Shown: positions 5,547-38,215 of the stretch, piece by piece
How the letters are laid out: each line of letters starts with the position of its first letter
How positions within the stretch are numbered: the stretch's first letter is position 1
NCBI GenBank assembly: GCA_030747485.1
Contig: JASLKP010000005.1
Location: 6,006 to 70,005 of the forward strand
DNA length: 64,000 bases
Source of the DNA: Candidatus Thalassarchaeaceae archaeon
GTDB taxonomy: Archaea > Thermoplasmatota > Poseidoniia > Poseidoniales > Thalassarchaeaceae
Reading direction: 5' to 3'
Position numbers and translations under genes: made by a program
The notes under the pieces: generated by a model
Database searches by the model: none
What the model was told of the DNA's origin: nothing
Seen by the model: only the letters and a program-made list of their open reading frames with translations

Positions 5547-7619
5547 TCACTCCTCTTCTGTTTGTCTACTGTTACGAGCATCTTCCTCTTCGGCTACACG
5601 TATGCCTTCCTCGATGTCGACCTTACTGGTGAGATAAGTACCGATTAGAATCACAATCGTAATCGTTAGCAATGCGACTCTACTATCGAAAGTAGTGCTC
5701 GCAATTCCATAGAGGAATGTACCAATCATCGCCGCAGATTTACCTAGGAATCCAAAGAATCCGAAGAATTCAGATGTGCGTGTTTTCGGTGTCAATTGTG
5801 AGAATACCGAACGGGCCTGAGCACCTGCCGAACCCATGGCACAACCAACAAACAATCCAAGAATAATCCATTGCATTGCCACACTAATTCCAAGAGGTGC
5901 CCATACCATGCTACGCATTAATGACGGCCACCAATCAACAGGTCCACCTCTGTCGACAACTGTTGGGTGAGTATTGCCAACTTCTGAAGCACCGGCCTCA
6001 TTCCCACCGATGAAAATGATGGAAAATCGGTGATCATTTGTATCATTAAACGAAGCGACCATTGCAGTCGCATTTCCTTCACTAATTGTTTTGATTTCTT
6101 TCTCCTCAACAGTCGCACCATCTGCAAGGAATGATGCTCCAAAGATTCCAACAGTCACAATAAGGAATGCTGCAATGACACCCATCCATCCCATTTCTTT
6201 ACTTTGCACCCACATGATGGCACCTCCCAGTATGGATAACATGGCCAGGATAAACAAACAAACCATCAATCCTTTTTTCATGTCAGTATCTTCTGCTCCT
6301 TCACGACTCCAATCTGGTTCTGGGAAATCATTTTGGAAAGCATCACGGAAGGCAGCATCACCATCTGAATCACTACTAATCCAATCTTCATAAGGAACTT
6401 CATACAATGTCTTCATCACATAAACACCGTCATCAGTTGTATTGTCTCCATCTGGATCCTCATCCCATTCAAATTGGAAATCATAACGCTCTGCATCATC
6501 TTCACCTTCTAGTTCGAGAGGTGCAAAACCTGCTGCTGTAACAGCGACTCCACAATAGATGAGTAGGGCCAACATCAATGCAAATTTTGTACCCTTCACA
6601 TCGGCCAGTTTACCGAATACGAATGTCATTGGGATTGCAACAATATTGACCGTTAACAAGAGAATGATATTCATTTGTTGATTGAGTCGCAATACTGAGT
6701 CTCCAAACGCACTGGCCATACTGGCGATGGTATTCACACCATCATAGAACAGCAGATAAGCAATTAAGAAGAATGCAAGGACCTTGAATTTTCGAATTTC
6801 CATCGCGGTATTGTATACTTCTGTATAAGCAATCTTCGCGGCTCCAAAAAATCGCGTAACGTTGTTTTCTCCCAAACTTTCCCATTCCAATTCTGAAGCG
6901 ATTTCAGGTTCAGGCGTCCACTTGAACATCAATGCTCCAAAACCCCACCACCATAGTGCAGATGTCACAAAGATGACCGCGAGTTTGAAATCCATATCCC
7001 AATCAAATGGTCCCATTAGAATGAGCAGATGGAAAATAAGCAGCAACGATCCACCCATAAATCCGTACATGTACCCCCAAGTAGAGACATGATCCTGACA
7101 TCGTCTTTCAGCGAGATAGGGCATGAACGAGTAATAGATGACGTTACCACCAGTGAATCCGATGGTACCGATGGAGAACATCACTGCAAGCACAATATAC
7201 CCATCTGAACCAAAGTAAGGTGCAGCTCCCATCAATGCAGTGAAGCCAATTCCCGCAACTGTGTACCATTTGAGTAATTTCTTCTTGACTGGCACACGAT
7301 CTGCAATGACCCCCAAAGCCGGTGCGGTGAGTACAACAAAAATCATTGAAATTGTGAGAACGAATGCATAGAACGAATCACCGGTTTGAGTACCAGTAGC
7401 TTTGTTGTACAAGTTGGACATCAGCGCCGGTGCAATCACCGTCATGACGGTCAAGGCATAGGCTTGATTTGCCCAGTCAAAGAAATACCAACCTTTGACT
7501 GCCTTTTTGTCATCTTCAGGCATTTCATCCATCAATCTCTTGACCAATCCGGGTTCCCGTGTCTCTGTAGATACTGTCTCGCCCATGCACCGTGAGGCTC
7601 GATAGAGGGCTATAACCAA
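5547..7619 (-). CDS. MFS transporter, UMF1/Atg22-like family, with large acidic loop insertion
   Basis: WYFFDWANQAYA N-terminal signature of the UMF1 family. About 12 TM segments, interrupted by a roughly 150-aa D/E-rich soluble loop (ELEGEDDAERYDFQFEWDEDPDGDN...). Alternative start at 7586 (MGETV). Confidence 0.6.
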   Translation of the reverse strand: MVIALYRASRCMGETVSTETREPGLVKRLMDEMPEDDKKAVKGWYFFDWANQAYALTVMTVIAPALMSNLYNKATGTQTGDSFYAFVLTISMIFVVLTAPALGVIADRVPVKKKLLKWYTVAGIGFTALMGAAPYFGSDGYIVLAVMFSIGTIGFTGGNVIYYSFMPYLAERRCQDHVSTWGYMYGFMGGSLLLIFHLLILMGPFDWDMDFKLAVIFVTSALWWWGFGALMFKWTPEPEIASELEWESLGENNVTRFFGAAKIAYTEVYNTAMEIRKFKVLAFFLIAYLLFYDGVNTIASMASAFGDSVLRLNQQMNIILLLTVNIVAIPMTFVFGKLADVKGTKFALMLALLIYCGVAVTAAGFAPLELEGEDDAERYDFQFEWDEDPDGDNTTDDGVYVMKTLYEVPYEDWISSDSDGDAAFRDAFQNDFPEPDWSREGAEDTDMKKGLMVCLFILAMLSILGGAIMWVQSKEMGWMGVIAAFLIVTVGIFGASFLADGATVEEKEIKTISEGNATAMVASFNDTNDHRFSIIFIGGNEAGASEVGNTHPTVVDRGGPVDWWPSLMRSMVWAPLGISVAMQWIILGLFVGCAMGSAGAQARSVFSQLTPKTRTSEFFGFFGFLGKSAAMIGTFLYGIASTTFDSRVALLTITIVILIGTYLTSKVDIEEGIRVAEEEDARNSRQTEEE

Positions 7620-7671
7620 CTCCCCGTATACATGAGTATAGTCTAAGTCCCGTATTGATTAGTGGGATTCC

Positions 7672-8457
7672 ATGCGAAGCCCTGCCAAAACAATGTATGT
7701 ACTGCTGCTGAGTTCGATTCTGGTTGCTGGGTGCCTCAATGCTGGCACCACAGGATCATCATCTTCACAGCCGATGAATGGACCCGCCGTCGATGCGGAG
7801 TTACTTTCGATTGAACCCGATTATAGGGAAAGCGGTAGTCTCCGCGAAATCGATATCACTGCATATCACGCGATGCTCGATTGGAATGGTTCAATTGATT
7901 TTGCAGGATGGGACGTAGATCTCGATGGCATTGTCGATTATGAAGTCACTTCACCAAATGGAATTACAGATATTACTGTGGATGACGATGATGTCGTAGA
8001 ATCAGATGACTTTCTTCGATTTACAGTTGCCTTTGGTGCCGTTGATAGTGATGGAAATTGGGGTTGGGAGATGTTGTCGAATGGTGATGAGATGGTGAAT
8101 TACGCATCAACAACAATGAACAGCTTTACTGCTTCAGACAGCGATGCATCGACATCTGGTGCAATGGACGACAACCTAATGCGCATCACTTGGCAATTCG
8201 CCGAGGATGACCTAAACTGGGCATTCGTCAGCATCAAGTTGGGCGTAGGCGACATGACCTACGACTGCACAACTGATGGCACTGAAGAGTGCGCAATCGG
8301 TCAGGACGGAAGCGATGAAGGCTCTTGGGAAACCACAGAGTTCCTCACTCTCTCAGAGAGTGGTACCGACATCTGCGACGGTTCGTGCAGTGTTGACATC
8401 TACGTGAAGTACCGCGGATCAACTGTATCTGGTACCTCCAACGTAGGCGTCGCTTGA
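7672..8457 (+). CDS. Secreted acidic lipoprotein-like protein
   Basis: Signal peptide with a lipobox-like LVAGC, an Asp-rich mature region, and a strong terminator hairpin downstream. Confidence 0.5.
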   Translation: MRSPAKTMYVLLLSSILVAGCLNAGTTGSSSSQPMNGPAVDAELLSIEPDYRESGSLREIDITAYHAMLDWNGSIDFAGWDVDLDGIVDYEVTSPNGITDITVDDDDVVESDDFLRFTVAFGAVDSDGNWGWEMLSNGDEMVNYASTTMNSFTASDSDASTSGAMDDNLMRITWQFAEDDLNWAFVSIKLGVGDMTYDCTTDGTEECAIGQDGSDEGSWETTEFLTLSESGTDICDGSCSVDIYVKYRGSTVSGTSNVGVA

Positions 8458-20892: not shown

Positions 20893-21007
20893 AGTTGGGC
20901 CAAGACAGGGGGCCGAATAGATATTTGTGGCAACATTGGCCCCCCTTAGGGGGTGCCAATGGGTTCAAACGGGAGTGGTGCATTCCGAAATTACTGGGGG
21001 ACAGCGT

Positions 21008-23638
21008 ATGCGAGGTGAATTGAGTGGCCGCGCGATTGTACCAATGCTACTCATTGGAATGCTTGTACTTGTTCCATTTTCATCTGTAAGTGGTGAAATC
21101 TCTTCAAATGGATTGGAATTAGTCATCGAAATTGATGATCAAAATGGTGCGCTCTATCACACAAATGAGGCCCCACTTGAATTGACTGTGAAAATACAAA
21201 ATCACGGAGATGTCAGTCGAGAAGTGACATACAATCCTGCTTGTCCATTCAATTTAGTCATACATTCTGACAGTTGGTCGTATGACCTCGATGAAGACAG
21301 AATCTGCCCTACACAAGAGCGTGCAATCACCATCCAACCAGGTCAAACTCGAGTCATTTCTACATTGAATTGGGATTGGGCTGATGCACCAAGTGGCACA
21401 CTGATTCTTGAATTTGAACAACCAGAATCATCACTTGCTACAATTTCAACTGTTGAATATCATTCAATCATTGGAATGCCTGAACATTTAGAATTACAGG
21501 CAGTGTTAGGTGAAACCATTGGTGAACAGATCGGACACACTGATTCAATGCCAGCCATGTTCCACTTGAAATTGGTCAACACAGGTGACGAAGTAGTCGA
21601 GGTGCCTTTTGATGAATCATGTCATATCCTGATGACGATTGATGAACTGGTTCGTTCACTCACAAAGGTTGGGTGTGGGGGTGGTATCCTTGATGCTGGA
21701 GAAAGTGTTTCCCTCGGATGGACAAGTTGGAACTTCGACAATGTCGACGATGGTATGCACTCTATTGCATTCACAATGACCGGTGTTGAAGATGTAAGCA
21801 CAACAGTAGACACAATGTACACTCATAATCCATTCCCATCTCGACAGACGAACCTATTACCTAGCGTTAGTGTTGAGCTTGATGAGGAACTGAAGTGGCA
21901 ATTTAATGTAGAGAATGTTGAAGAGATTCCTGCAAAACTTGTCTTTGACAGTTTATGTATCACAGAGATGCATGTCATTTCACCCGAGGGTGGTATCGTA
22001 TACGATTCACGCACTGAACGTAATTGTCTATCCTCTGGAAGTCAACAACAAATCAAATCAGGTACAATTCATACATTGGAAAGCAATGTTTGGAATCTAC
22101 AAGATAGTAACGATTGTGAAATTAATGATGGATTGCACTTGTTGGTCATTACACAACCCGATTACAATCTAGTCTCGACGCAATCATTCGATTATGTTGG
22201 AGAGGGAACTGGTGATGAATGTCGAGCAGTTGCACAGGATTCATCGAACATTCGCTTTGCTGTCAACGATTTACAAATTCTAGATGCTGACTCTGTTGAT
22301 GAACGAATGTTATTTGATATACAACTTGAAAATCTTGGATTGGAGGATTTTGATATATACTGGGCCACTGATTGTTCTCTTGAAATTACAGTGAGTCAAC
22401 ATCAACATATCTACCGAACATGGAATCATGGTTGTGGAAACTCTGGACAAATACTCACTCTATCACCAAGCCAATCAGTTGTTTGGAGGGGGATAGAAGT
22501 CGCGTTTGTGGATGAGGGAGTAGCTCTTGAGAATGGCACATGGATCGTCACAATACGTTCAACATCTTCTCCAAATTTCTTCGTTGAGGCTGCGCATACA
22601 TACGATGGTCCTCACATTACTACTACCGATGTTGGAGACATTACAGAAGTCATTGAAATTGTGGATGAGAATCCAACACCTGAAGAAATTCCAAGTAATT
22701 TCATCCTTGAAGGGAAATGGCATTATGTTACTCAAACCAATCAGGGTTGTTGGCTCCTCACTGATTCAAGTGGAAGCGAACGCTCCTTTGTTGCACACAT
22801 GCAAGATGGACGATGGGCACCAATTCCGGGACTAACTGGAACCTACGATGTAGAGGAGACACCTGCTGCGGGAGACTGTGCTGCATGGACTGGCTTTGCA
22901 ATTCTTTCAACCATTGAGGAAGATGTACCAGCATCCATCATTGAAGAGCCTGTTGTCACTTCAAAACCAGTAGAGAGCCCTACTGAAGTTGTACTAGAGA
23001 GTGCACCCACTGTTGCTGCCGCTGTCGCGACCACCTCTCTGTCAATCATGGTCCTGTTATACATCACCAATACAGAATGGATTCGAATTTCTGCCCTTCA
23101 ATTGGGTATCGGTTTAGTTGGAATGGTACGCAAGACTCGAGAACATGATGGAGAATATCAACGGGGACGTATCATGGGTTACCTGACTGCGAATCCAGGT
23201 GTCCATTTCCGGGCATTGTTGGGAGCATTGAACATGAGTAATGGGCAATTAACTCATCATCTGAAGAGTCTTCAGGGTGAAGAAAGAGTATGGCGACGAA
23301 AAGATGGACGTCTTGTGCGATTCTATCCAGCGAGTATCCAACCATCCACTGAAGAGGATGATTTGCCCGTACCTCTACTCACACCAGATCCAAACAGTCT
23401 ACAAGGCAAGATTCTGAGACTCCTCGATGCAACTGAAAACGACATTGTAAATCTCAGTCAAAAAGAGTTAGCTGTTCGCCTAGAAGCAAGTCAACAATTG
23501 ATTAGTCACCATCTACGGACATTGGAAAAGTTCGGCCTCATTGAACGTGAAAAGGTCGGCATGAGATATCGGTATCAACTCACCCGAGAAGCAATCTTCT
23601 TGGTAAACAACAGTGAGTTCGAAGTTGACGGTGAATGA
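21008..23638 (+). CDS. Membrane-tethered transcription regulator: signal-anchor, four BsuPI-like extracellular beta-sandwich repeats, TM helix, two cytoplasmic winged-HTH domains
   Basis: Four internal repeats, each with a conserved Cys pair. A TM helix follows, then MarR/ArsR-like wHTH segments (YLTANPGVHFRALLGALNMSNGQLTHHLKSL and ILRLLDATENDIVNLSQKELAVRLEASQQLISHHLRTLEKFGLIE). The track start 20927 is in the same frame; 21008 gives a clean signal anchor. Confidence 0.55.
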   Translation: MRGELSGRAIVPMLLIGMLVLVPFSSVSGEISSNGLELVIEIDDQNGALYHTNEAPLELTVKIQNHGDVSREVTYNPACPFNLVIHSDSWSYDLDEDRICPTQERAITIQPGQTRVISTLNWDWADAPSGTLILEFEQPESSLATISTVEYHSIIGMPEHLELQAVLGETIGEQIGHTDSMPAMFHLKLVNTGDEVVEVPFDESCHILMTIDELVRSLTKVGCGGGILDAGESVSLGWTSWNFDNVDDGMHSIAFTMTGVEDVSTTVDTMYTHNPFPSRQTNLLPSVSVELDEELKWQFNVENVEEIPAKLVFDSLCITEMHVISPEGGIVYDSRTERNCLSSGSQQQIKSGTIHTLESNVWNLQDSNDCEINDGLHLLVITQPDYNLVSTQSFDYVGEGTGDECRAVAQDSSNIRFAVNDLQILDADSVDERMLFDIQLENLGLEDFDIYWATDCSLEITVSQHQHIYRTWNHGCGNSGQILTLSPSQSVVWRGIEVAFVDEGVALENGTWIVTIRSTSSPNFFVEAAHTYDGPHITTTDVGDITEVIEIVDENPTPEEIPSNFILEGKWHYVTQTNQGCWLLTDSSGSERSFVAHMQDGRWAPIPGLTGTYDVEETPAAGDCAAWTGFAILSTIEEDVPASIIEEPVVTSKPVESPTEVVLESAPTVAAAVATTSLSIMVLLYITNTEWIRISALQLGIGLVGMVRKTREHDGEYQRGRIMGYLTANPGVHFRALLGALNMSNGQLTHHLKSLQGEERVWRRKDGRLVRFYPASIQPSTEEDDLPVPLLTPDPNSLQGKILRLLDATENDIVNLSQKELAVRLEASQQLISHHLRTLEKFGLIEREKVGMRYRYQLTREAIFLVNNSEFEVDGE

Positions 23639-26933: not shown

Positions 26934-26957
26934 ACCTCCTCCCTCTGGCAATGAACA

Positions 26958-28088
26958 GTGAGTACAAAGAAGAATCCAAAATCGGGTTCTCCTCCCTCTG
27001 ATTCCAACGCTCCAAAGAAGGGTGCGTCCGGTTCGCGTAAGAAGCGAGGAGGTGGGAAGAGCCATCGTCAAAGAAGGCCAAAACGGAATAATGCATCGAA
27101 AGATGATGTGAAAGCACTGGACCAAGAGGCCATTATGCGAGCCAATGAGCGCTTCAAGAGAAATCCAAGACCCATGGGGCTTGAATCAGAAATTGATCCA
27201 CCTCCAAGAAATGTCAAACTAGAATGGGAACTCAATCCAGTTCCCAAATCAGTTGAACGTGAAGTACATGATATTGTCACAAAGCCTGGTGAATTCGGAT
27301 TTTTAGAAAATGATCGTGTTGATGAAATTGCTGAGCAACTAGGCAAGCGACCCATTACGCTGGAACAAGCATTGAGTCTACGAGCGGCGTTAAATCAAGA
27401 AAAAGCGGTATTCAGCCATGGCCGATTACAACGACGTGCACGAGAAATGCTAAGACGGTATGAGGGAGGAGAAAGTGTTCTTTCATTATCCAAACGTTTT
27501 GATTTCCCACCAGTGAACTTGTTTCGTGCAATTCTCAGTGCCAGAAATTGGTCCAAGAATCGAATCAAAGATACATTGAGGGAACCTGAAAAGAAACTCA
27601 ACAAACGCGATTTGAGTCAATTCCGGAAAGCAGAGGCTCAAGACAGGGTGACTCATGTTAATCAAAGTGAAACTCACCATGCTGCAGACCTATTTGAGAA
27701 AGTTCTCTGTGACCATTTCACAGCCAATGATATCCGATTTCGTACACAGACTGAACTTCTCAAAGAACAGGTGGCTGCTGAAGGGCGTCCGGTACGAACA
27801 CCTGATTTGTTAATGCTAGATCATGTCGAAATCAACGGAGTACCAGTAGCTTGGATTGATGCCAAGCACTTCTATGGAGCAAACCTTTCATTCCAACGAA
27901 AGAAGACTCAAAAACAAGTCAACCGTTATGTCGAGGAATGGGGGCATGGTGCCATTATCTATCGACATGGGTTCTGTGATGGGCTCAATTTGAAGGGAGC
28001 TATCAAATTAGATGCAAGTCCAATTGATTTAACTGAATTAATTGAACACAATAAACGATTCAATACTAATCGAGAGAGTGAAGATTGA
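26958..28088 (+). CDS. TPD-motif PD-(D/E)XK nuclease family protein (CDIN1/C15orf41-like) with Lys/Arg-rich N-terminal tail
   Basis: RTPDLLMLDHVEINGVPVAWIDAKHFYG contains the literal T-P-D motif and a D...(D/E)xK nuclease core, with helical (HTH-like) segments upstream. The first 60 aa are about 45% K/R/G/S. Confidence 0.5.
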   Translation: MSTKKNPKSGSPPSDSNAPKKGASGSRKKRGGGKSHRQRRPKRNNASKDDVKALDQEAIMRANERFKRNPRPMGLESEIDPPPRNVKLEWELNPVPKSVEREVHDIVTKPGEFGFLENDRVDEIAEQLGKRPITLEQALSLRAALNQEKAVFSHGRLQRRAREMLRRYEGGESVLSLSKRFDFPPVNLFRAILSARNWSKNRIKDTLREPEKKLNKRDLSQFRKAEAQDRVTHVNQSETHHAADLFEKVLCDHFTANDIRFRTQTELLKEQVAAEGRPVRTPDLLMLDHVEINGVPVAWIDAKHFYGANLSFQRKKTQKQVNRYVEEWGHGAIIYRHGFCDGLNLKGAIKLDASPIDLTELIEHNKRFNTNRESED

Positions 28089-29055
28089 GGGCATCGTCGA
28101 TGACTGAGGCCTCACTTGCACCAAGTCCCCGACCGATTAACGATTCAACGAGTGTTGTTTGCCAATCATCTGGCAATGGTTTGGAGAAATCCGTAGGCAA
28201 TATGATCACGCTTTCTCCAAGCATACACAAACGTGCCGCAATGGGTGAATCAATGAGACCTGCAGAAATGAGTGCACCGCCGACCAGATGAAGTAATTCA
28301 GTTCGTTCTGCATCTTTGATTAGACCTGAAAGGTCTGCAAAGGATGCACTCGCAGAGAGTAGTTCACTCCAACGACTCTCATCCCAGCGACCTTCGCGTA
28401 AACCAAACATGACTTGTTCGCCCGCAGCACGTATGGCTAATTTCCATTGGCCATCATCGATGTAACTTGATGTGTGTCTGCTTGCAGAAGTTCTCCAACA
28501 GACCACTACAGGAATATTCTTGAACCAAGAAACTACGGCACCTGACCCTCCTAAATCACCATGAAGTGGTGGGCAACCTGGTTCCAATCTGAGTTCCACA
28601 CCACCTGCATGTAAAGCAGAAACATCTCCCAGACCACCTGATAATTGACGTTCTACACGGTGGGCAATATGGATGGAACGCGCACGAGAAATATCTTCAG
28701 GTTCTCCCAAAGCTCTCTGCATCGATAATGCACAAGCGATGGCACCTGCGGCTGAAAGACCAAATCCTTGTGATCTAGGTAATGATAATGTTTGATTTAT
28801 TGTCCAATCAAATGAAAGTACTTCTGGGATGAAAGTACTCAATTCCTCCAGAACATGTTGATGTATTTTCTGACCGGATGGTGTCGTGGATGTCAGAATG
28901 CCATTACCCTCACTAGCATGTGCAATGATTTCAACGCCACGATCTAGAGCAAGGCCGGCCCCCCGACTACCTTGTTCAAGAAGAAATTCAGAATCATCAT
29001 GAATACTGAAAATCAAGGTGATGTGGCCACCCACACAGGCTCTTCCTTCCATCAT
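28066..29055 (-). CDS. GHMP kinase family protein (substrate unresolved; pantoate kinase / mevalonate-pathway kinase candidates)
   Basis: PRSQGFGLSAAGAIACALSM is the GHMP ATP-binding motif (PxGSGLGSSAA). It sits immediately downstream of rpoD, where archaea often place GHMP kinases. Confidence 0.6.
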   Translation of the reverse strand: MMEGRACVGGHITLIFSIHDDSEFLLEQGSRGAGLALDRGVEIIAHASEGNGILTSTTPSGQKIHQHVLEELSTFIPEVLSFDWTINQTLSLPRSQGFGLSAAGAIACALSMQRALGEPEDISRARSIHIAHRVERQLSGGLGDVSALHAGGVELRLEPGCPPLHGDLGGSGAVVSWFKNIPVVVCWRTSASRHTSSYIDDGQWKLAIRAAGEQVMFGLREGRWDESRWSELLSASASFADLSGLIKDAERTELLHLVGGALISAGLIDSPIAARLCMLGESVIILPTDFSKPLPDDWQTTLVESLIGRGLGASEASVIDDALNLHSLD

Positions 29056-31646: not shown

Positions 31647-32954
31647 CTACGGGGCAGGTGAATCATGTTCTTTACAAATTAAATAGCCGTTATTGGCCTC
31701 AGCGATGAAACCTGGATTTGATGCATTTTGTTGAGATATGTTTCGCATTTCTCGATCTATTTTTGATTGTAATTTCGGTTGTAGTTCAGGATTTAGGGCA
31801 CAGCGTAATTTGAGAGAGGAAAGGCCCAAATCACCTGCTTTTTGAGCAATTTCCTGAATCAAATGAATTTCTAATTCAGGAATATATGCAACGACTTCTC
31901 CAGAAATTTGGACAAATGAAAATACCATTTCATATGTTTTTTCAGAGACATGAAGTTCATGAAAAGTGGAAAGGATGGGTTCCGAACTGATTAATGTCGG
32001 TCTGCGACCTGTGACGACATCCCACCTTGGTTCGCTCATTGATGCGATCTTCTTCCATGATTCAGCCAAGCCACTGGCGATGAGGCAGGGGTCTGTGATT
32101 GTCAGGTGCTCTCCGATTTCAACATCCTTTTGATTGACAACTGTAGGCTCTGATTCACCTGTGAATATACCTGAAAAGTCTCCGCTCTTGTTCAATCGAA
32201 CCAAACGATTAGGTTGAGGACATGCGGCTGGTCCGACCCATAGAGACAATCGGTCAATGCGTCCTCTACCTTGTGTCATCCATTGCCAAGTCATTGGAGA
32301 ATTGGGCCAAATTGTAGAAACAATCGCCGCGACTTCCTCTCTTTGAGTATCTGACAACCTTGGTGACAAGTCAAGAATCAATGCTGCTTGAGGAGGCATT
32401 AATGGTGCCCATGCTGAGAGTAATTTGTCCAAGGGAGGTTGCATTTCACTCAATGAATGCTGTTGTGCATCCGGTGGGCGTGCAGGATCTACATGAAGTA
32501 GTGAAATTGGTAATGTAGATTCTGAATGCTCTCTGTATATCTGTAAAATTTCATTTGCGTCAATTCCATTTCCCCATAGTATTCGACTTGATTCACTCCA
32601 ATTGCTCCCATCTTCTGCCCAATCTCCACATCTCTCAAGATTAATTGCGGCCAACGGAGCCACTGCACCAGACAATTCAACACCCAATCCCGGTTGATTC
32701 AAGTTCGCACACAAAGCAGCAAGTTGTGTGCCACTGCCACATGCTGGATCTAGAATGATTCCTGGCTCAAGGTTACAATCGTCCAATAACTTCGATTTTG
32801 CACGGGCCACGGTCCAAGGAGTTGCAAAACGGTGCATTTCATTTGTTGCATGAATTGGAGGGCCACTCAATTCTTGTCGAATGGGTGCGCTAGATTCTGC
32901 GTAATCTTTGGCCTTTTCATCGACCACCATCACAACCGGTTGGATGGCAGGCAT
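31647..32954 (-). CDS. Class I SAM-dependent methyltransferase-like protein with long C-terminal extension
   Basis: ILDPACGSGTQLAAL is Rossmann motif I, as in m2G RNA MTases (RlmL/Trm11) and HsdM-type N6-adenine MTases. The motif IV position reads DPARPP, a degenerate version of (D/N)PP(Y/F). Confidence 0.5.
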   Translation of the reverse strand: MPAIQPVVMVVDEKAKDYAESSAPIRQELSGPPIHATNEMHRFATPWTVARAKSKLLDDCNLEPGIILDPACGSGTQLAALCANLNQPGLGVELSGAVAPLAAINLERCGDWAEDGSNWSESSRILWGNGIDANEILQIYREHSESTLPISLLHVDPARPPDAQQHSLSEMQPPLDKLLSAWAPLMPPQAALILDLSPRLSDTQREEVAAIVSTIWPNSPMTWQWMTQGRGRIDRLSLWVGPAACPQPNRLVRLNKSGDFSGIFTGESEPTVVNQKDVEIGEHLTITDPCLIASGLAESWKKIASMSEPRWDVVTGRRPTLISSEPILSTFHELHVSEKTYEMVFSFVQISGEVVAYIPELEIHLIQEIAQKAGDLGLSSLKLRCALNPELQPKLQSKIDREMRNISQQNASNPGFIAEANNGYLICKEHDSPAP

Positions 32955-32999: not shown

Positions 33000-33977
33000 T
33001 CAGACGAATAATTGTTCAAGTTCTAACTCAAATCTAAGCCAACTTTGTTGTAATTCGTGTCCGTCATTATTTCCATATGCTAAATCCGGAGGCAATAGGA
33101 TTGTGTGTGATGTTCCCAGTAACGTCAATGATTCTTCCATATCAGCATCCAAACCTACCAATCCCCAACCGAATCCTTCAATGTAACAAACCCAAGGAAT
33201 TGGGGGTTCGGTATTGCACATTGGGTCTTCTCCAGCAGTTGCAGGGAGGATTCCATCGTCCAACTGTTCGCCAGTGTCTTCATCCCATACCGTATATTGA
33301 ACATTCATGCGTTCATTTCGGGCGTGTCGGTCTTTTTCACTACCATCTGAATATACTTCAACGTCAAGATACACTGTTGCAGAGGGTAGTGATACATGGG
33401 TTAGACTGACTGTAAACATGCCATCATCAATTCCTGCTTCCAATTGTAGAGGGACAACAACCGAATCCCCTGCTTCAATTTGCAACAATATTCCTTGTCC
33501 TTGTCCATCTATACTCACCGCTTCATGGTTGATTTTGATTGACAACGGTAAGGCATTATCGGAGTCGACATTGTGTATAGCCAAATGTGCATAATCACCC
33601 TGTCCTTGGTGCGCCCACGTACATAGTAACTCTCCGGGGAACCAGAATGTTTCATCTTGGGAGGACAAATCTGATGGCCAATTCCAATCGTCATTACGTG
33701 ACTCACAGCCTGGATCATAGAAGAGAAGGGTGGCCTCCCATGTCCAACGGCCATCCAATTGGATATCTTCTTCATCGATTGCTGCAAATGCACCATCGAA
33801 CTGATTGAGGAATGTCCATGCACCAATTCCAATCCAAATTCCGGCGATGATAATCATCAGTATTGTCCCGATACTTGTCATGATTGCTAGGCGAGGAACA
33901 GCCATCTCATTGAAGCCCAATGGAACGATTGGGTGTTCTTCCGCTTCAGGACGATCCGATATCCAAGAGCCGCTCAC
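33000..33977 (-). CDS. Membrane-anchored FKBP-type peptidyl-prolyl cis-trans isomerase
   Basis: N-terminal TM (AIMTSIGTILMIIIAGIWIGIGAW). The C-terminal FKBP domain reads VQYTVWDEDTGEQLDDG ... IEGFGWGLVGLDADMEESLTLLGTSHTILLPPDLAYGNNDGHELQQSWLRFELEL. Confidence 0.65.
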   Translation of the reverse strand: MSGSWISDRPEAEEHPIVPLGFNEMAVPRLAIMTSIGTILMIIIAGIWIGIGAWTFLNQFDGAFAAIDEEDIQLDGRWTWEATLLFYDPGCESRNDDWNWPSDLSSQDETFWFPGELLCTWAHQGQGDYAHLAIHNVDSDNALPLSIKINHEAVSIDGQGQGILLQIEAGDSVVVPLQLEAGIDDGMFTVSLTHVSLPSATVYLDVEVYSDGSEKDRHARNERMNVQYTVWDEDTGEQLDDGILPATAGEDPMCNTEPPIPWVCYIEGFGWGLVGLDADMEESLTLLGTSHTILLPPDLAYGNNDGHELQQSWLRFELELEQLFV

Positions 33978-34036: not shown

Positions 34037-37000
34037 TCAATCCTGAGCCAATTGAAGTTGATGGCGCGTCCCCAGCCAGGCCACAATACCGAGTTCCACA
34101 CCTAGTGCGAGAAGCATGAGGAGTAACATCTCAGAATCGAGGACATTGTCCTGTAAGATGAGCAACCAAACAGCAATTGAAAGAACCAGATCAAATGCAC
34201 CCATTACCCGCATTCCTCTTCTAAGTTGTAAGATGCCCCCCACCCATGTAACAAGTGAAAGAGCAAGGATTGAGACAACCATCCAACCATTCCAACCTGT
34301 CACTGCCAATACGCCAATCGGGAGTAGGATGTGAGCATTCCAAAGCCATGCAGTTGTCCATTTTGGTAGGTTGTACAATATTGTGTATAAATGTGCTAAC
34401 ACCATGACGAGGGCTGTCAACAAAATGGTCCATGAAATGTAGGTCATGTAGGTGCTTGAATAATCAAACCACGGACTGAAAGCAAGTAATGATGCTAATC
34501 CCGCATTGATTGCCATTGCAGCACCTGCGGGTTGCTTCCAGTCAAAGGAACGGCGAAGACAGAGTAACGATGCAAGAAGGCCGGCAGGGCCTGCTGATAC
34601 AAGGACAATCATGAATGCAAAACCACCTCTTCCTGCTGCACCACGATGGTCAGGCATTCCTTTTGTCCGACGGAATCCCTCAATCCATTCCCATACGCAT
34701 ACAAGCATGAAAAGTACTGCTTCGTGGAATAACCATGGAACCATCCAATCGACCATCGAGATATTGGAATCTAGAGGATTTACAGACATTGGAAATGGAA
34801 CGGCGTTGATGAATAACGCACCAAATACACGGGTTAGTAACAGCACCATTACGACCCATTCAACAGCACTAGGAATTCGCCATGCTAAATCATCACGCCC
34901 GTATAGTGAATTCATCGCCAAACCCAACAATGCAAAGGTGAGAACGAGCAGGTCCAACTGAGCATTCAGGGAACCATGTATTCCAAAATGTCCCACGAGG
35001 TAAATGAGGCCTAAGCCACACATTGTCACAGCAAAGGGCAATTCTATGCCATTAAAATCGGGTAATCGAAGGTGTTGGATTCTCGCGCGCTCTCGTGAAA
35101 TCCATGTCAACGCGAGTGCAAATAATGTGACGACCAACATCAAACCAGGATTTGATGACGAATCAAAATATGCAAACCAACATGCTGCAAATGTAGTCAC
35201 TGCAATAAATGAGATTACAATGATTGGTCTATGGTGGATATCTCCAACCAAGAGATCCATCTCTTCGTTACCATATGCACCTGCCTTGCGTCGTCTTTTC
35301 CTTTGTTTTTCCATTAATGATAACAGTTCTGAATCTGCCATTTTCATACTACCTTTAGAAACTGCTTGTGAAATTGATTTTGCCAATTCACCAGTCGGGT
35401 CTGAAGCAGCCTTGGCGGCGAGAGTTTCATCAGAAAAATGATACAAATTCGAACCCTGTTGCAACTCTAGAGGAACTTCATCAGCATCTTGTGAAACTAC
35501 TAGAGCAGATTCTGAAGTAGAAACTGTTTCTGGAATCAGCGATGTGCCACGAGTTGGGGCTTCAAGCAATGGACTCTGTTGAGCGGATACATTGGCAAGA
35601 TTACCCGATTCAAGCGCTGCTGCAATTTGCTGTTTTCGTGCAATTGAAATTAATCTCGCTTCTCTTTTACCAACCTGTTTCAGTTCAGCACGGAGTTCAC
35701 CTTGAGCGGCCAGATACAATGCTGTTCCAACAAACAGAGCCAATGCGATGATTGATTGGCTCCAATGCATATCATCTCCTGATGTAGCCCAAATCAATAG
35801 AGTCAAGAGAAGTACAATTGTAATTGCTGGCTGGAGAATTTTCTCTAATTTACTGGCAATCGGGAGATATACTGCGACGATGCAAATACTAGCTAACAGA
35901 ATCACACCTCCCGTCATACTACGCGTAAGAGGTTCTGGATCAATGAGAGGGAAGGAGATGTGTCGATCCAATGAGAAGAGCATGATTTGTACACTAAGTA
36001 GCCCCATTGTTAGCGATAATAACTCAGAGTTTGGTCCGTCTTCTCCACGTGTCAGAAGAATGATGACTGAAGCCGCTGTAAGTATAGTAATCCAAGCAAC
36101 ATGTACTCCAAAGTTCCATTGGAATACAATCATGACGATTGCTAAAGAAATGAGAATCAACCGTGGATTGTCCTGATGTCGGCCCTGTGCTTCTGCTGTA
36201 ATATGGACGATTGCCAAAACAGAGAATCCAATGATTGAAAGCGAACCAATATTATGGCTGACATCGACAAACATCAACCACACAATGAGACCTGATATTA
36301 GGCCTAAGTTCCACAATCTCATTAGACCTGAATCCCTAAGTCGAGCTGTCAATTCAGATGCTCCAATCAGTTTTCCTGCGATGTTCACACCAGTTTCTCC
36401 TAATTTCATATTCACTGGATATTGTAACAACGCCGCGATTGTCAAATATATCGCAACAAAGGAAGGGTCCAACATAATCACATCCCATCCGCTAACATCA
36501 ATTTCTCTAGCATCTGAAAAGTTATCCAATGAAGATGTCCAAAATCGATATACTAACATCCACAACCAGGGTGCGAGAACAGTAACACCTGCAATACTTG
36601 GAGAGTCACGATGAAGGGCAAGAGCTGCCGTTGAAATATGAAGTATGACAAATGAAATGAGGAGTAACTTGCCTTCATCACCGCCAATATTAGTTGACTC
36701 TGCAGGGATTAGAATAGTTAACAATAGCATGAGGACCAAACTTCCAATCCACAATACACGATCGGTGACATTTGATTGGTGTTTTAGTAAGATACCAATG
36801 GTCACCAATGCCGACAATGCCGCAAAGGATTCATATCCAGAAAATGGCAATTGAGAATCACCGATGATGGCCTTCGAGATTTCTTTTGACTCCAACATAA
36901 CCAGTAATATCAAGAGAATCGGGAGAGCACTCAATAGGGGTTTGAGGACTTCTTTCTCATCTACTCCACGGACGACCAAGTACGAGCCACCATAGACTGC

Positions 37001-38215
37001 GATTAAAGTCATCAAAATTCCGAGGGCATATCCTGTTACATCTCTCCCACTTGCCAATAGTAACATTGCACCAATCATTCCCAACCCGATTGATACACCC
37101 CACAATCCTGGTTTACCCAGTCCAGTAATTGCAATTCCTTTGCTGAACCAATTTTCCTCGCGCGCGAATCTTGCCGCCATTGCTCCGTTGATTCCTGTGG
37201 TTGCCAATGCAAGCAAAAACAAGGGCATTGGATCATTCAATGGCAATATGACCAATGCGCCAATGTGCAGTGGATTAGATTGAATCGCATGGAATCCTAT
37301 CCATAAATGACTAGCAGCAATCCCGAGCGATGCTAAATTTCCACTGCGGCGATGAAGGGCAAGTCCGTGTAACAAAATGATTGCAATGAGAATCATTATC
37401 GTAACTCCCAATTCTCCACCAATCGATCCTGCCGCAGATGCAATGGCTAGAGAGACTAAGGTTGCTTGGGCCATGATGGCATCATGACCATGACGATATC
37501 CTACGAGAATATTAACGCCAACCAATCCAATGAGAGTGACGCCTAGAGTTTGGGTGTCTATCCATTTCCAATGATGTGCATCTAAGGCCAAACCATACAT
37601 CAATTTCATTGAAATTATCACCCAAGTTACACCAAGTAAATGCATTCCTTTGTCAGGAATCCAACGCTCACCAAGAACAAAACCAAGAGTCGCTAAACCG
37701 ACGAGTCCTGCTGTCGCTGCAAAAGGGTCGAGGGCAGTTGCAACCAACCAACCCACTAGACTGTATACGAAGATCATTGCAACCATCAGGGCCCAATGTA
37801 AACGACGTTCCCCCTCTACTGCAATTTCTGTAATGGTATCCATTTCGGGCGTCATATACACCGTTCCATCTGGGAGAACATCTCCTGGATTCGGCCCAGA
37901 ATCTTTCTCAAATGGATCAAACATATCGCCTATGGCCTCATCAATTTCTTCTGAAGGTGATGGTTCAGGCAAAGCGCCTGCGGTCGCATCAGTGGGAGAT
38001 GAACCAGCCTTAGCGGGCTTCTTTGCTGATTCTAATGAGTCATCTGAAAGGAAGGCTCCAAGGTCAATTCCGCCACCCATCTCAAAGTTACGAGAATCGA
38101 TGATTCTGTCCTTCGCAGGAAGGGGAGCATCGTCCTCTTGGCCCTCGCCCATGACACCAAGCCAAACCGATGCAGCATAAGACTCGCCCTTCTTTGAATA
38201 CACCTTATGCTTCAA
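34037..38215 (-). CDS. Giant polytopic integral membrane protein (1392 aa, more than 30 predicted TM helices), unknown function
   Basis: A single uninterrupted ORF. An N-terminal acidic soluble region of about 130 aa is followed by dense hydrophobic helices along the whole length. No recognisable catalytic motif. Confidence 0.6.
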   Translation of the reverse strand: MKHKVYSKKGESYAASVWLGVMGEGQEDDAPLPAKDRIIDSRNFEMGGGIDLGAFLSDDSLESAKKPAKAGSSPTDATAGALPEPSPSEEIDEAIGDMFDPFEKDSGPNPGDVLPDGTVYMTPEMDTITEIAVEGERRLHWALMVAMIFVYSLVGWLVATALDPFAATAGLVGLATLGFVLGERWIPDKGMHLLGVTWVIISMKLMYGLALDAHHWKWIDTQTLGVTLIGLVGVNILVGYRHGHDAIMAQATLVSLAIASAAGSIGGELGVTIMILIAIILLHGLALHRRSGNLASLGIAASHLWIGFHAIQSNPLHIGALVILPLNDPMPLFLLALATTGINGAMAARFAREENWFSKGIAITGLGKPGLWGVSIGLGMIGAMLLLASGRDVTGYALGILMTLIAVYGGSYLVVRGVDEKEVLKPLLSALPILLILLVMLESKEISKAIIGDSQLPFSGYESFAALSALVTIGILLKHQSNVTDRVLWIGSLVLMLLLTILIPAESTNIGGDEGKLLLISFVILHISTAALALHRDSPSIAGVTVLAPWLWMLVYRFWTSSLDNFSDAREIDVSGWDVIMLDPSFVAIYLTIAALLQYPVNMKLGETGVNIAGKLIGASELTARLRDSGLMRLWNLGLISGLIVWLMFVDVSHNIGSLSIIGFSVLAIVHITAEAQGRHQDNPRLILISLAIVMIVFQWNFGVHVAWITILTAASVIILLTRGEDGPNSELLSLTMGLLSVQIMLFSLDRHISFPLIDPEPLTRSMTGGVILLASICIVAVYLPIASKLEKILQPAITIVLLLTLLIWATSGDDMHWSQSIIALALFVGTALYLAAQGELRAELKQVGKREARLISIARKQQIAAALESGNLANVSAQQSPLLEAPTRGTSLIPETVSTSESALVVSQDADEVPLELQQGSNLYHFSDETLAAKAASDPTGELAKSISQAVSKGSMKMADSELLSLMEKQRKRRRKAGAYGNEEMDLLVGDIHHRPIIVISFIAVTTFAACWFAYFDSSSNPGLMLVVTLFALALTWISRERARIQHLRLPDFNGIELPFAVTMCGLGLIYLVGHFGIHGSLNAQLDLLVLTFALLGLAMNSLYGRDDLAWRIPSAVEWVVMVLLLTRVFGALFINAVPFPMSVNPLDSNISMVDWMVPWLFHEAVLFMLVCVWEWIEGFRRTKGMPDHRGAAGRGGFAFMIVLVSAGPAGLLASLLCLRRSFDWKQPAGAAMAINAGLASLLAFSPWFDYSSTYMTYISWTILLTALVMVLAHLYTILYNLPKWTTAWLWNAHILLPIGVLAVTGWNGWMVVSILALSLVTWVGGILQLRRGMRVMGAFDLVLSIAVWLLILQDNVLDSEMLLLMLLALGVELGIVAWLGTRHQLQLAQD

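Follow-up and report, generated by a model that had tools for sequence, protein, structure and literature searches.

The stretch of DNA analysed here, 64,000 nucleotides from a Candidatus Thalassarchaeaceae archaeon (contig JASLKP010000005.1, positions 6,006 to 70,005; hereafter the window), carries a complete gene for a stand-alone archaeal orthologue of CDIN1 (C15orf41), a protein of the Pfam TPD family. An in-frame TGA at 26952-26954 lies just upstream of the GTG start codon at 26958, which is therefore the most upstream start possible. Of the 25 homologues (53-94% identity) in the alignment on which all statements of invariance below are based, the close ones begin at this same position, several of them with ATG (MSTKKNPK, MSSDQNPK), and this supports translation of the basic tail with which the protein opens. 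The T-P-D motif that gives the family its name is part of VRTPDLLMLDHVEINGVPVAWIDAKHFYG (residues 279-307, nt 27792-27878). An identical 376-aa protein is present in public metagenomes, and NCBI holds a 'TPD domain-containing protein' at 94% identity. The GC content of the locus is ordinary, neither an Rfam family nor a tRNA overlaps the gene, and the opposite strand has only short chance open reading frames (ORFs). A scan for sigma-70 promoters and terminators, which is uninformative for an archaeon, gave matches at the level of shuffled sequence. No second TPD copy was found within the 64-kb window.

Membership of the family follows from the profile match. Pfam returns PF14811 (TPD) over residues 223-346 with 74.7 bits (E 8.6e-21), where the curated gathering cutoff is 27 bits, and at E <= 10 it is the sole family to match the protein; a search of NCBIfam gave no match. 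A homology search recovered 944 relatives, and the best 120 of the 944 are all of the Marine Group II (MGII) type, with 59-100% identity. The named relatives among these 120 are called 'TPD domain-containing protein', one later match is a 'C15orf41 family protein [Candidatus Poseidoniaceae archaeon]', and the names carried by homologues include metagenome-assembled genomes (MAGs) of Candidatus Thalassarchaeaceae, Poseidoniales and Thermoplasmatota. Taken with the genes that surround the TPD gene, such names mark the source as a Marine Group II archaeon. Searched exhaustively with a profile, 1.84 billion cluster representatives yielded 1,522 relatives at E <= 0.001; a cluster look-up for 10 distant representatives brought up hardly any names.

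Conservation already sets in near residue 60, well ahead of the Pfam domain. The residues E247, T281-P282-D283 and D301-A302-K303 are invariant in 25/25 homologues, as are R180, P184, P185, V186, F189 and R190 in the helical N-terminal domain (N-domain) that precedes the nuclease domain. The second catalytic motif reads W299-I-D301-A-K303, and 18 residues separate D283 from D301. The same arrangement of T-P-D, exactly 18 residues and W-[IL]-(D/E)-x-K is found in nearly all full-length family members among 150 representatives. One MGII-type homologue (P0043) has an internal direct duplication of ~54 residues in the N-domain (alignment columns ~242-295), which may be a genuine tandem duplication or else an artefact of assembly.

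For comparison with human CDIN1 we used a sequence of which 25 of 26 residue identities agree with those quoted in PMC13463051, and this caveat applies to every human comparison that follows. BLASTP aligns archaeal residues 174-361 with human 85-276 at 24% identity over 199 aligned residues (E 7e-8). In hhalign, the MGII alignment matches human CDIN1 with a probability of 84.6% and places E247 on E166, and a broader profile, for which the query was combined with 126 representatives, aligns human CDIN1 from 28 to 259 with 85.6 bits, so that the homology takes in the N-domain too. The catalytic residues of the human protein map consistently in hhalign and hmmalign (E166 to E247, D196 to D283, E214 to D301 and K216 to K303). 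In the hmmalign mapping, the human nucleic-acid-contact residues R101, R126 and Q232 are kept as R190, R208 and Q320. The interface with Codanin-1 has fared differently. N146 corresponds to Q228 and A160 to H241, R22 and R26 are unaligned, and D171 alone is kept, as D252. Binding of Codanin-1 is a property of the animal protein and not of the Pfam family, and the interface residues of the archaeal protein do not provide for it. Codanin-1 itself has been reported in eukaryotes only (PMC7092493).

The human protein is described as a helical N-domain, a long connecting helix and an alpha/beta C-domain with a five-stranded sheet (PMC13463051). Biochemical activity of CDIN1 was first reported in 2026, when the human protein was shown to be a 3' exonuclease that acts on RNA, depends on Mg2+/Mn2+ and has no DNase activity on a large set of substrates (PMC13463051). 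The activity is abolished in D196A/E214A and stimulated by Codanin-1, the positively charged coiled coil of which serves as a substrate 'feeder', and the human complex binds both DNA and RNA (PMC13463051).

Structure prediction places this layout on the archaeal protein. A full-length model was of mediocre quality (pLDDT, the predicted local distance difference test score, 72.6), with residues 1-48 disordered at pLDDT <50. A second model, of residues 49-376 and based on a deeper alignment that included protist relatives, reached pLDDT 92.1 and a predicted template modelling (TM) score of 0.87 (model 2). Here a short helix (56-64), a Pro-rich linker and an all-helical N-domain come ahead of a connecting helix at 237-256, which is followed by strand 261-263, helix 264-275, strands 284-292 and 295-303, helix 311-328 and strands 331-335 and 348-352 (protein numbering). 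E247 is located on the connecting helix, D283 immediately precedes strand 284-292, and strand 295-303 carries D301 and K303. Model 2 is thus predicted to have the alpha-beta-beta-beta-alpha-beta core of PD-(D/E)XK nucleases with E, D and (D/E)xK at the expected places, and the whole two-domain architecture of CDIN1 appears to be present. In BFVD, Foldseek matched model 2 significantly and over the full length to three proteins. At the top stands an unnamed viral protein (A0A8F8SNR0; E 6.4e-25, TM-scores 0.76/0.82, root-mean-square deviation 2.3 A over 285 columns), and the other two are a 'TPD domain-containing protein [Powai lake megavirus]' and a 'CDAN1-interacting nuclease 1 [Acanthamoeba polyphaga mimivirus]'. 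Foldseek searches of the PDB with both models returned nothing at E <= 0.001; the nearest structures, all non-significant, are the type II restriction endonucleases BsaWI (E 0.11), OkrAI and BbvCI. Searches of all PDB sequences with phmmer and with the family profile gave no real match.

An earlier, sequence-only reading of this stretch had placed the ORF with its T-P-D segment in the CDIN1/C15orf41 family, with a PD-(D/E)XK catalytic signature and the CDIN1 architecture. The ORF and the quoted segment are present exactly as described, the family assignment and the signature are borne out by the profile and the invariant residues, and the homology reaches beyond the TPD domain to the whole two-domain protein, as seen in the profile alignment and in the viral superposition. 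Two further claims stand in part. The reading had described helical, helix-turn-helix (HTH)-like regions ahead of the core. The region is helical in the model and has two HTH-like motifs (~118-152 and 172-195), the HTH nature of which is plausible on weak matches, one from PHROG to an HTH family over residues 160-209 (E 0.055, not significant) and one from Foldseek to a phage HTH protein over 55 columns (E 0.32). A statement on 'two AraC/XylS-like HTH' by Babbs et al. 2013 is relayed in PMC7261414. The reading had also taken the first 60 residues for a basic, disordered tail. Basic and disordered it is, over a length of ~48 residues and not 60, since residues 49-64 form a conserved and confidently modelled helix.

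In the tail, residues 1-47 hold 15 K/R, 1 D/E and 4 hydrophobic residues, and the net charge of the disordered segment 1-48 is +14, where the protein outside the tail is near neutral (54 K/R vs 50 D/E). No terminus is more basic in any of the window's 61 ORFs of 120 aa or longer; the tail exceeds ribosomal protein S4 (+8) and falls in the same class as the C-terminus of S13 (+11). The tails of 85 MGII homologues are 25-72 aa long (median 41 aa) and have a net charge of +7 to +15, with K and R together at a median fraction of 0.37, and their sequence varies freely while the charge is kept. We rejected the idea of a signal peptide or Tat signal, because the basic stretch is not followed by a hydrophobic segment. 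A profile match of residues 19-100 to the polybasic N-terminus of human NMT1 (E ~1) was dismissed as chance; pairwise comparison with NMT1 left just an 8-residue W-x-x-x-PVPK match. Between the tail and the N-domain lies a second element, the helix and 'MGL..IDPPP' linker of residues 49-84, which is not found in human or giant-virus forms and of which marine protists have a shorter version. The short forms of the family begin at profile position ~83, i.e. at about residue 85. The parts of the gene are listed in Table 1.

Table 1. Positions of the TPD gene and of the segments and catalytic codons within it (window numbering; residues in protein numbering).
Feature	Position	Strand	Basis
TPD/CDIN1-family gene, complete; 376 aa plus stop, GTG start	26958..28088	+	ORF list, PF14811
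Disordered Lys/Arg-rich tail, residues 1-48	26958..27101	+	pLDDT <50, composition, conserved in 85 homologues
Conserved helix (56-64) and Pro-rich 'MGL..IDPPP' linker, residues 49-84	27102..27209	+	Alignments; pLDDT 87-95 in model 2
All-helical N-domain, residues 85-235	27210..27662	+	Model 2 secondary structure, family profile, residue mapping, invariant columns
SVLSLSKRFDFPPVNLFRAILSAR, residues 172-195, top-conserved N-domain segment, helix-turn-helix-like	27471..27542	+	Invariant columns; weak PHROG match
Long connecting helix and alpha/beta PD-(D/E)XK nuclease domain with five-stranded sheet, residues 236-358	27663..28031	+	Pfam, model 2
E247 codon, on connecting helix, aligned to human E166	27696..27698	+	Invariant; hhalign, hmmalign
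D283 codon (T-P-D motif), aligned to human D196	27804..27806	+	Invariant; BLASTP, hhalign, hmmalign
D301-A302-K303 codons, (D/E)xK motif, aligned to human E214/K216	27858..27866	+	Invariant; fixed spacing; mapping
C-terminal helix and acidic end, residues 359-376	28032..28085	+	Model 2 helix 359-375; ORF coordinates

The gene sits among housekeeping genes. In the window its neighbours are the genes for leucyl-tRNA synthetase (LeuRS) and a DCC1-like thiol-disulfide oxidoreductase on one side, and on the other a convergent GHMP-kinase gene and the cluster rpoD-S11-S4-S13. Patterns specific to the MGII clade, by which absence from other prokaryotes cannot be proven, located 423 loci in GTDB species genomes, and the best 80 of these 423 are all Poseidoniales. 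Counted over these 80, with loci of sufficient flank as denominators, LeuRS is found immediately upstream on the same strand in 62/64, the DCC1-like gene between LeuRS and the TPD gene in 46/64, the convergent GHMP kinase downstream in 74/75 and rpoD beyond the kinase in 72/72. The order LeuRS-TPD-kinase is also kept in the loci of more distant homologues. Because the DCC1-like homologue holds its position in these 46 loci, the LeuRS, DCC1-like and TPD genes may be co-transcribed. The longest reading of the DCC1-like ORF in the window (PF04134; 26481-26933) overlaps the 3' end of LeuRS by ~98 nt and ends 24 nt before the TPD start.

On the other side, the GHMP-kinase gene (28066-29055, minus strand) and the TPD gene overlap tail to tail by 23 nt (28066-28088), which leaves no room for an intergenic terminator between them. 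The corresponding gap is 0-5 nt in two related loci, L001 and L120. The L120 locus has a phosphopantothenate synthetase gene (PF02006) at a distance of 1.04 kb from the kinase (7033-8001), with a quinolinate phosphoribosyltransferase (QRPTase) gene between, and on account of this neighbour the kinase is probably the pantoate kinase of archaeal coenzyme A synthesis.

Further out, positions 20927-23638 encode a 903-aa protein with BsuPI-like, HVO_0163-type and MarR-type winged-helix domains, and a similar protein is found near LeuRS in L120. Downstream of S13, two minus-strand ORFs (31647-32954, 435 aa; 33000-33977, 325 aa) have no Pfam match. The L001 locus, at 61% identity, has counterparts of 433 aa and 320 aa in the same order, followed by a gene of >1,257 aa without a recorded Pfam match, which corresponds in position to a 1,392-aa ORF of the window (34037-38215, minus strand). 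The 435-aa and 325-aa ORFs and their large neighbour look like conserved MGII proteins of unknown function.

Mobile or defence-related associations were sought by several routes. PADLOC returned 0 matches and PHROGs none that was significant, collections of phage (50,697 records) and plasmid (72,556 records) sequences contained no TPD relative, and a scan of IMG/VR with MGII- and protist-type patterns found no relative of those types. No methyltransferase or other partner gene was found near the TPD gene. In view of these negative searches and of the shared synteny, we regard the TPD gene as a vertically inherited core gene of Poseidoniales and not as a mobile or defence gene. Named prokaryotes across all searches are MGII archaea only, in agreement with a report of C15orf41 orthologues in Euryarchaeota only (Shroff et al. 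2020, PMC7092493). A literature search found no paper that pairs PF14811 or the TPD domain with Poseidoniales, and no archaeal member therefore appears to have been characterised.

Outside the archaea, the nearest relatives are proteins of marine protists, with 45-51% identity to MGII over the core. This set comprises MMETSP transcripts (P0126, P0130, P0290, P0413) and metagenomic sequences (P0287, P0330, P0289), and the contigs are eukaryote-like, e.g. with the TPD gene beside an FKS1 glucan synthase, or compact and algal-like. Fusions to a Stc1-type zinc finger occur in P0287 (contig L118, 715-2547, beside the FKS1 glucan synthase), P0131, P0141 and P0148. Stc1 is the fission-yeast adaptor between RNAi and heterochromatin from which knowledge of the PF12898 domain derives. 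A different layout is seen in one eukaryotic subclade (P0159, P0164 and P0179), in which an N-terminus resembling a mitochondrial or plastid transit peptide is followed by sub-threshold pentatricopeptide (PPR) repeats and then by the TPD nuclease. The PPR matches include the PRORP-type PPR_long model, and the layout is reminiscent of organellar RNA-processing enzymes. Short CDIN1/TPD homologues of 270-310 aa are common on contigs of giant-virus MAGs (L083-L117, IMG/VR), which are up to ~480 kb long. In a crude neighbour-joining tree without support values, the MGII proteins stand beside the long protist forms and far from the giant-virus groups and the human protein.

On the strength of family membership, conserved catalytic residues, a predicted fold, a conserved tail charge and vertical inheritance, all obtained here, we lean slightly towards the view that the archaeal TPD protein is a Codanin-independent RNA nuclease of the CDIN1 type, the tail of which tethers the substrate in cis. 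We propose RNA because human CDIN1 cuts RNA with Codanin-1 as a feeder, and the PPR-TPD layouts are a weaker ground for the same proposal. In such an enzyme E247, D283, D301 and K303 would together bind Mg2+ and hydrolyse the phosphodiester bond, the helical N-domain would bind nucleic acid, and the N-terminal add-on, made up of the tail (~+14), the conserved helix and the linker, would feed the substrate in cis and so replace the Codanin-1 coiled coil. By analogy with the human enzyme, the archaeal protein would be catalytically active, would have RNA as its substrate and could act as an exonuclease from the 3' end, with tethering by the tail as the putative archaeal addition.

Several considerations speak against this proposal. 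The identity to human CDIN1 is just 24%, half of the six modelled human substrate-contact residues are changed (K53 to V151, D155 to S237, D231 to K319), and the acidic residue of (D/E)xK is D in the archaeal protein where human CDIN1 has E. Since solved nucleases gave no significant similarity, the fold depends on prediction together with family membership. Specificity for RNA leans on one study, that of 2026 on the human enzyme, and earlier work on human CDIN1 saw no activity on RNA or DNA (PMC7261414). The gene neighbourhood offers no functional clue. The role of the tail is one that we infer, and the tail might just as well be the remnant of a eukaryotic nuclear-localisation-like segment.

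DNA is the substrate of most characterised PD-(D/E)XK enzymes, and the original prediction for C15orf41 was a DNA structure-specific endonuclease, such as an Hjc-like Holliday-junction resolvase or a repair nuclease. The HTH-like motifs of the N-domain, the type II restriction endonucleases found as nearest, though non-significant, solved structures and the binding of DNA as well as RNA by the human complex (PMC13463051) would all fit such an enzyme. However, two independent studies found human CDIN1 to be without DNase activity on single-stranded DNA, double-stranded DNA, forks, flaps and Holliday junctions (PMC7261414, PMC13463051), and the PPR fusions within the family, sub-threshold as these matches are, point to RNA. 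The sequence-only reading had named Hjc and NucS as comparators, and these did not hold up, as neither sequence nor profile searches detected similarity to Hjc, NucS or any PDB chain, and Foldseek gave no significant match to a solved structure; a protein of 376 aa and two domains also differs from the small single-domain Hjc dimer. We consider a DNA enzyme rather unlikely.

If the tail were the main functional element, the protein might bind nucleic acid without cleaving it, as a scaffold or as a factor associated with chromatin or the ribosome. The failure of the first activity assays on human CDIN1 (PMC7261414) and a tail as basic as those of ribosomal proteins in the window could be taken in this sense. 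Four catalytic residues that are invariant in the MGII homologues and present in most of the 150 representatives are nevertheless hard to explain without catalysis, and the human enzyme is active in a manner that is lost with D196A/E214A (PMC13463051), which makes a purely binding function improbable. A recently acquired component of a restriction, defence or mobile-element system, as the PD-(D/E)XK fold and the giant-virus relatives might suggest, is very hard to credit in the face of the empty PADLOC, PHROG, phage and plasmid searches, the lack of the MGII type in IMG/VR, housekeeping synteny fixed in nearly all of the best 80 species-level genomes, ordinary GC content and the lack of a partner gene nearby.

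The distribution of the family and the affinity of the MGII proteins to those of protists hint at inter-domain gene transfer, with which they are compatible in either direction. One tentative possibility, which we put forward as speculation more than expectation, is that Poseidoniales obtained CDIN1 from marine protists, or donated it to them, and kept it throughout the history of the order as a Codanin-independent, self-sufficient RNA nuclease, with the tail, possibly derived from a nuclear-localisation-like segment of eukaryotes, repurposed as an in-cis tether in place of the Codanin-1 coiled coil. The members of the family come from eukaryotes, giant viruses and a single order of archaea, the archaeal ones being nearest to those of marine protists, and this restricted distribution makes a candidate case of inter-domain transfer in the surface ocean.

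In humans, CDIN1 is a disease gene linked to anaemia, and to our knowledge its structure has not been solved experimentally. Crystals and assays could be easier to obtain with an archaeal orthologue that has no need of Codanin-1. If our proposal is true, such a protein would be a minimal soluble model with which to reach a first experimental structure of CDIN1 and to define what the disease enzyme does by itself. A further question is what role a CDIN1-type RNA nuclease has in a cell without nucleus, ASF1 and Codanin-1. The occurrence of the protein in archaea is less novel than the sequence-only reading had rated it, and will be no surprise to specialists, as orthologues in Euryarchaeota were reported in 2020 (Shroff et al. 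2020, PMC7092493) and NCBI routinely labels MGII homologues as 'TPD domain-containing' or 'C15orf41 family'.

Among known systems, Hjc and the type II restriction enzymes appear to share with the archaeal protein, as predicted, a catalytic logic in which a helix carries E, D opens a strand and (D/E)xK falls on the strand after it, but Hjc has no counterpart of the helical N-domain. Human CDIN1 is closer in having PF14811, the two-domain layout, the aligned E, D and (D/E)xK residues and the 18-residue spacing, and differs in that the archaeal protein alone has ~84 extra N-terminal residues (basic tail, helix and linker). The giant-virus homologues have the same motifs and match in structure over their full length, their 270-310 aa corresponding to archaeal residues ~85-360; at 26-35% identity, without basic tail or helix and linker, they are viral rather than cellular genes. 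The marine protist proteins resemble those of MGII most, with a pre-core helix/linker module that is 5 residues shorter and a basic stretch upstream of it, some of them with short basic tails, whereas in many the N-terminus has a Stc1-type zinc finger (PF12898), and N-terminal extensions reach 324 residues in the aligned set.

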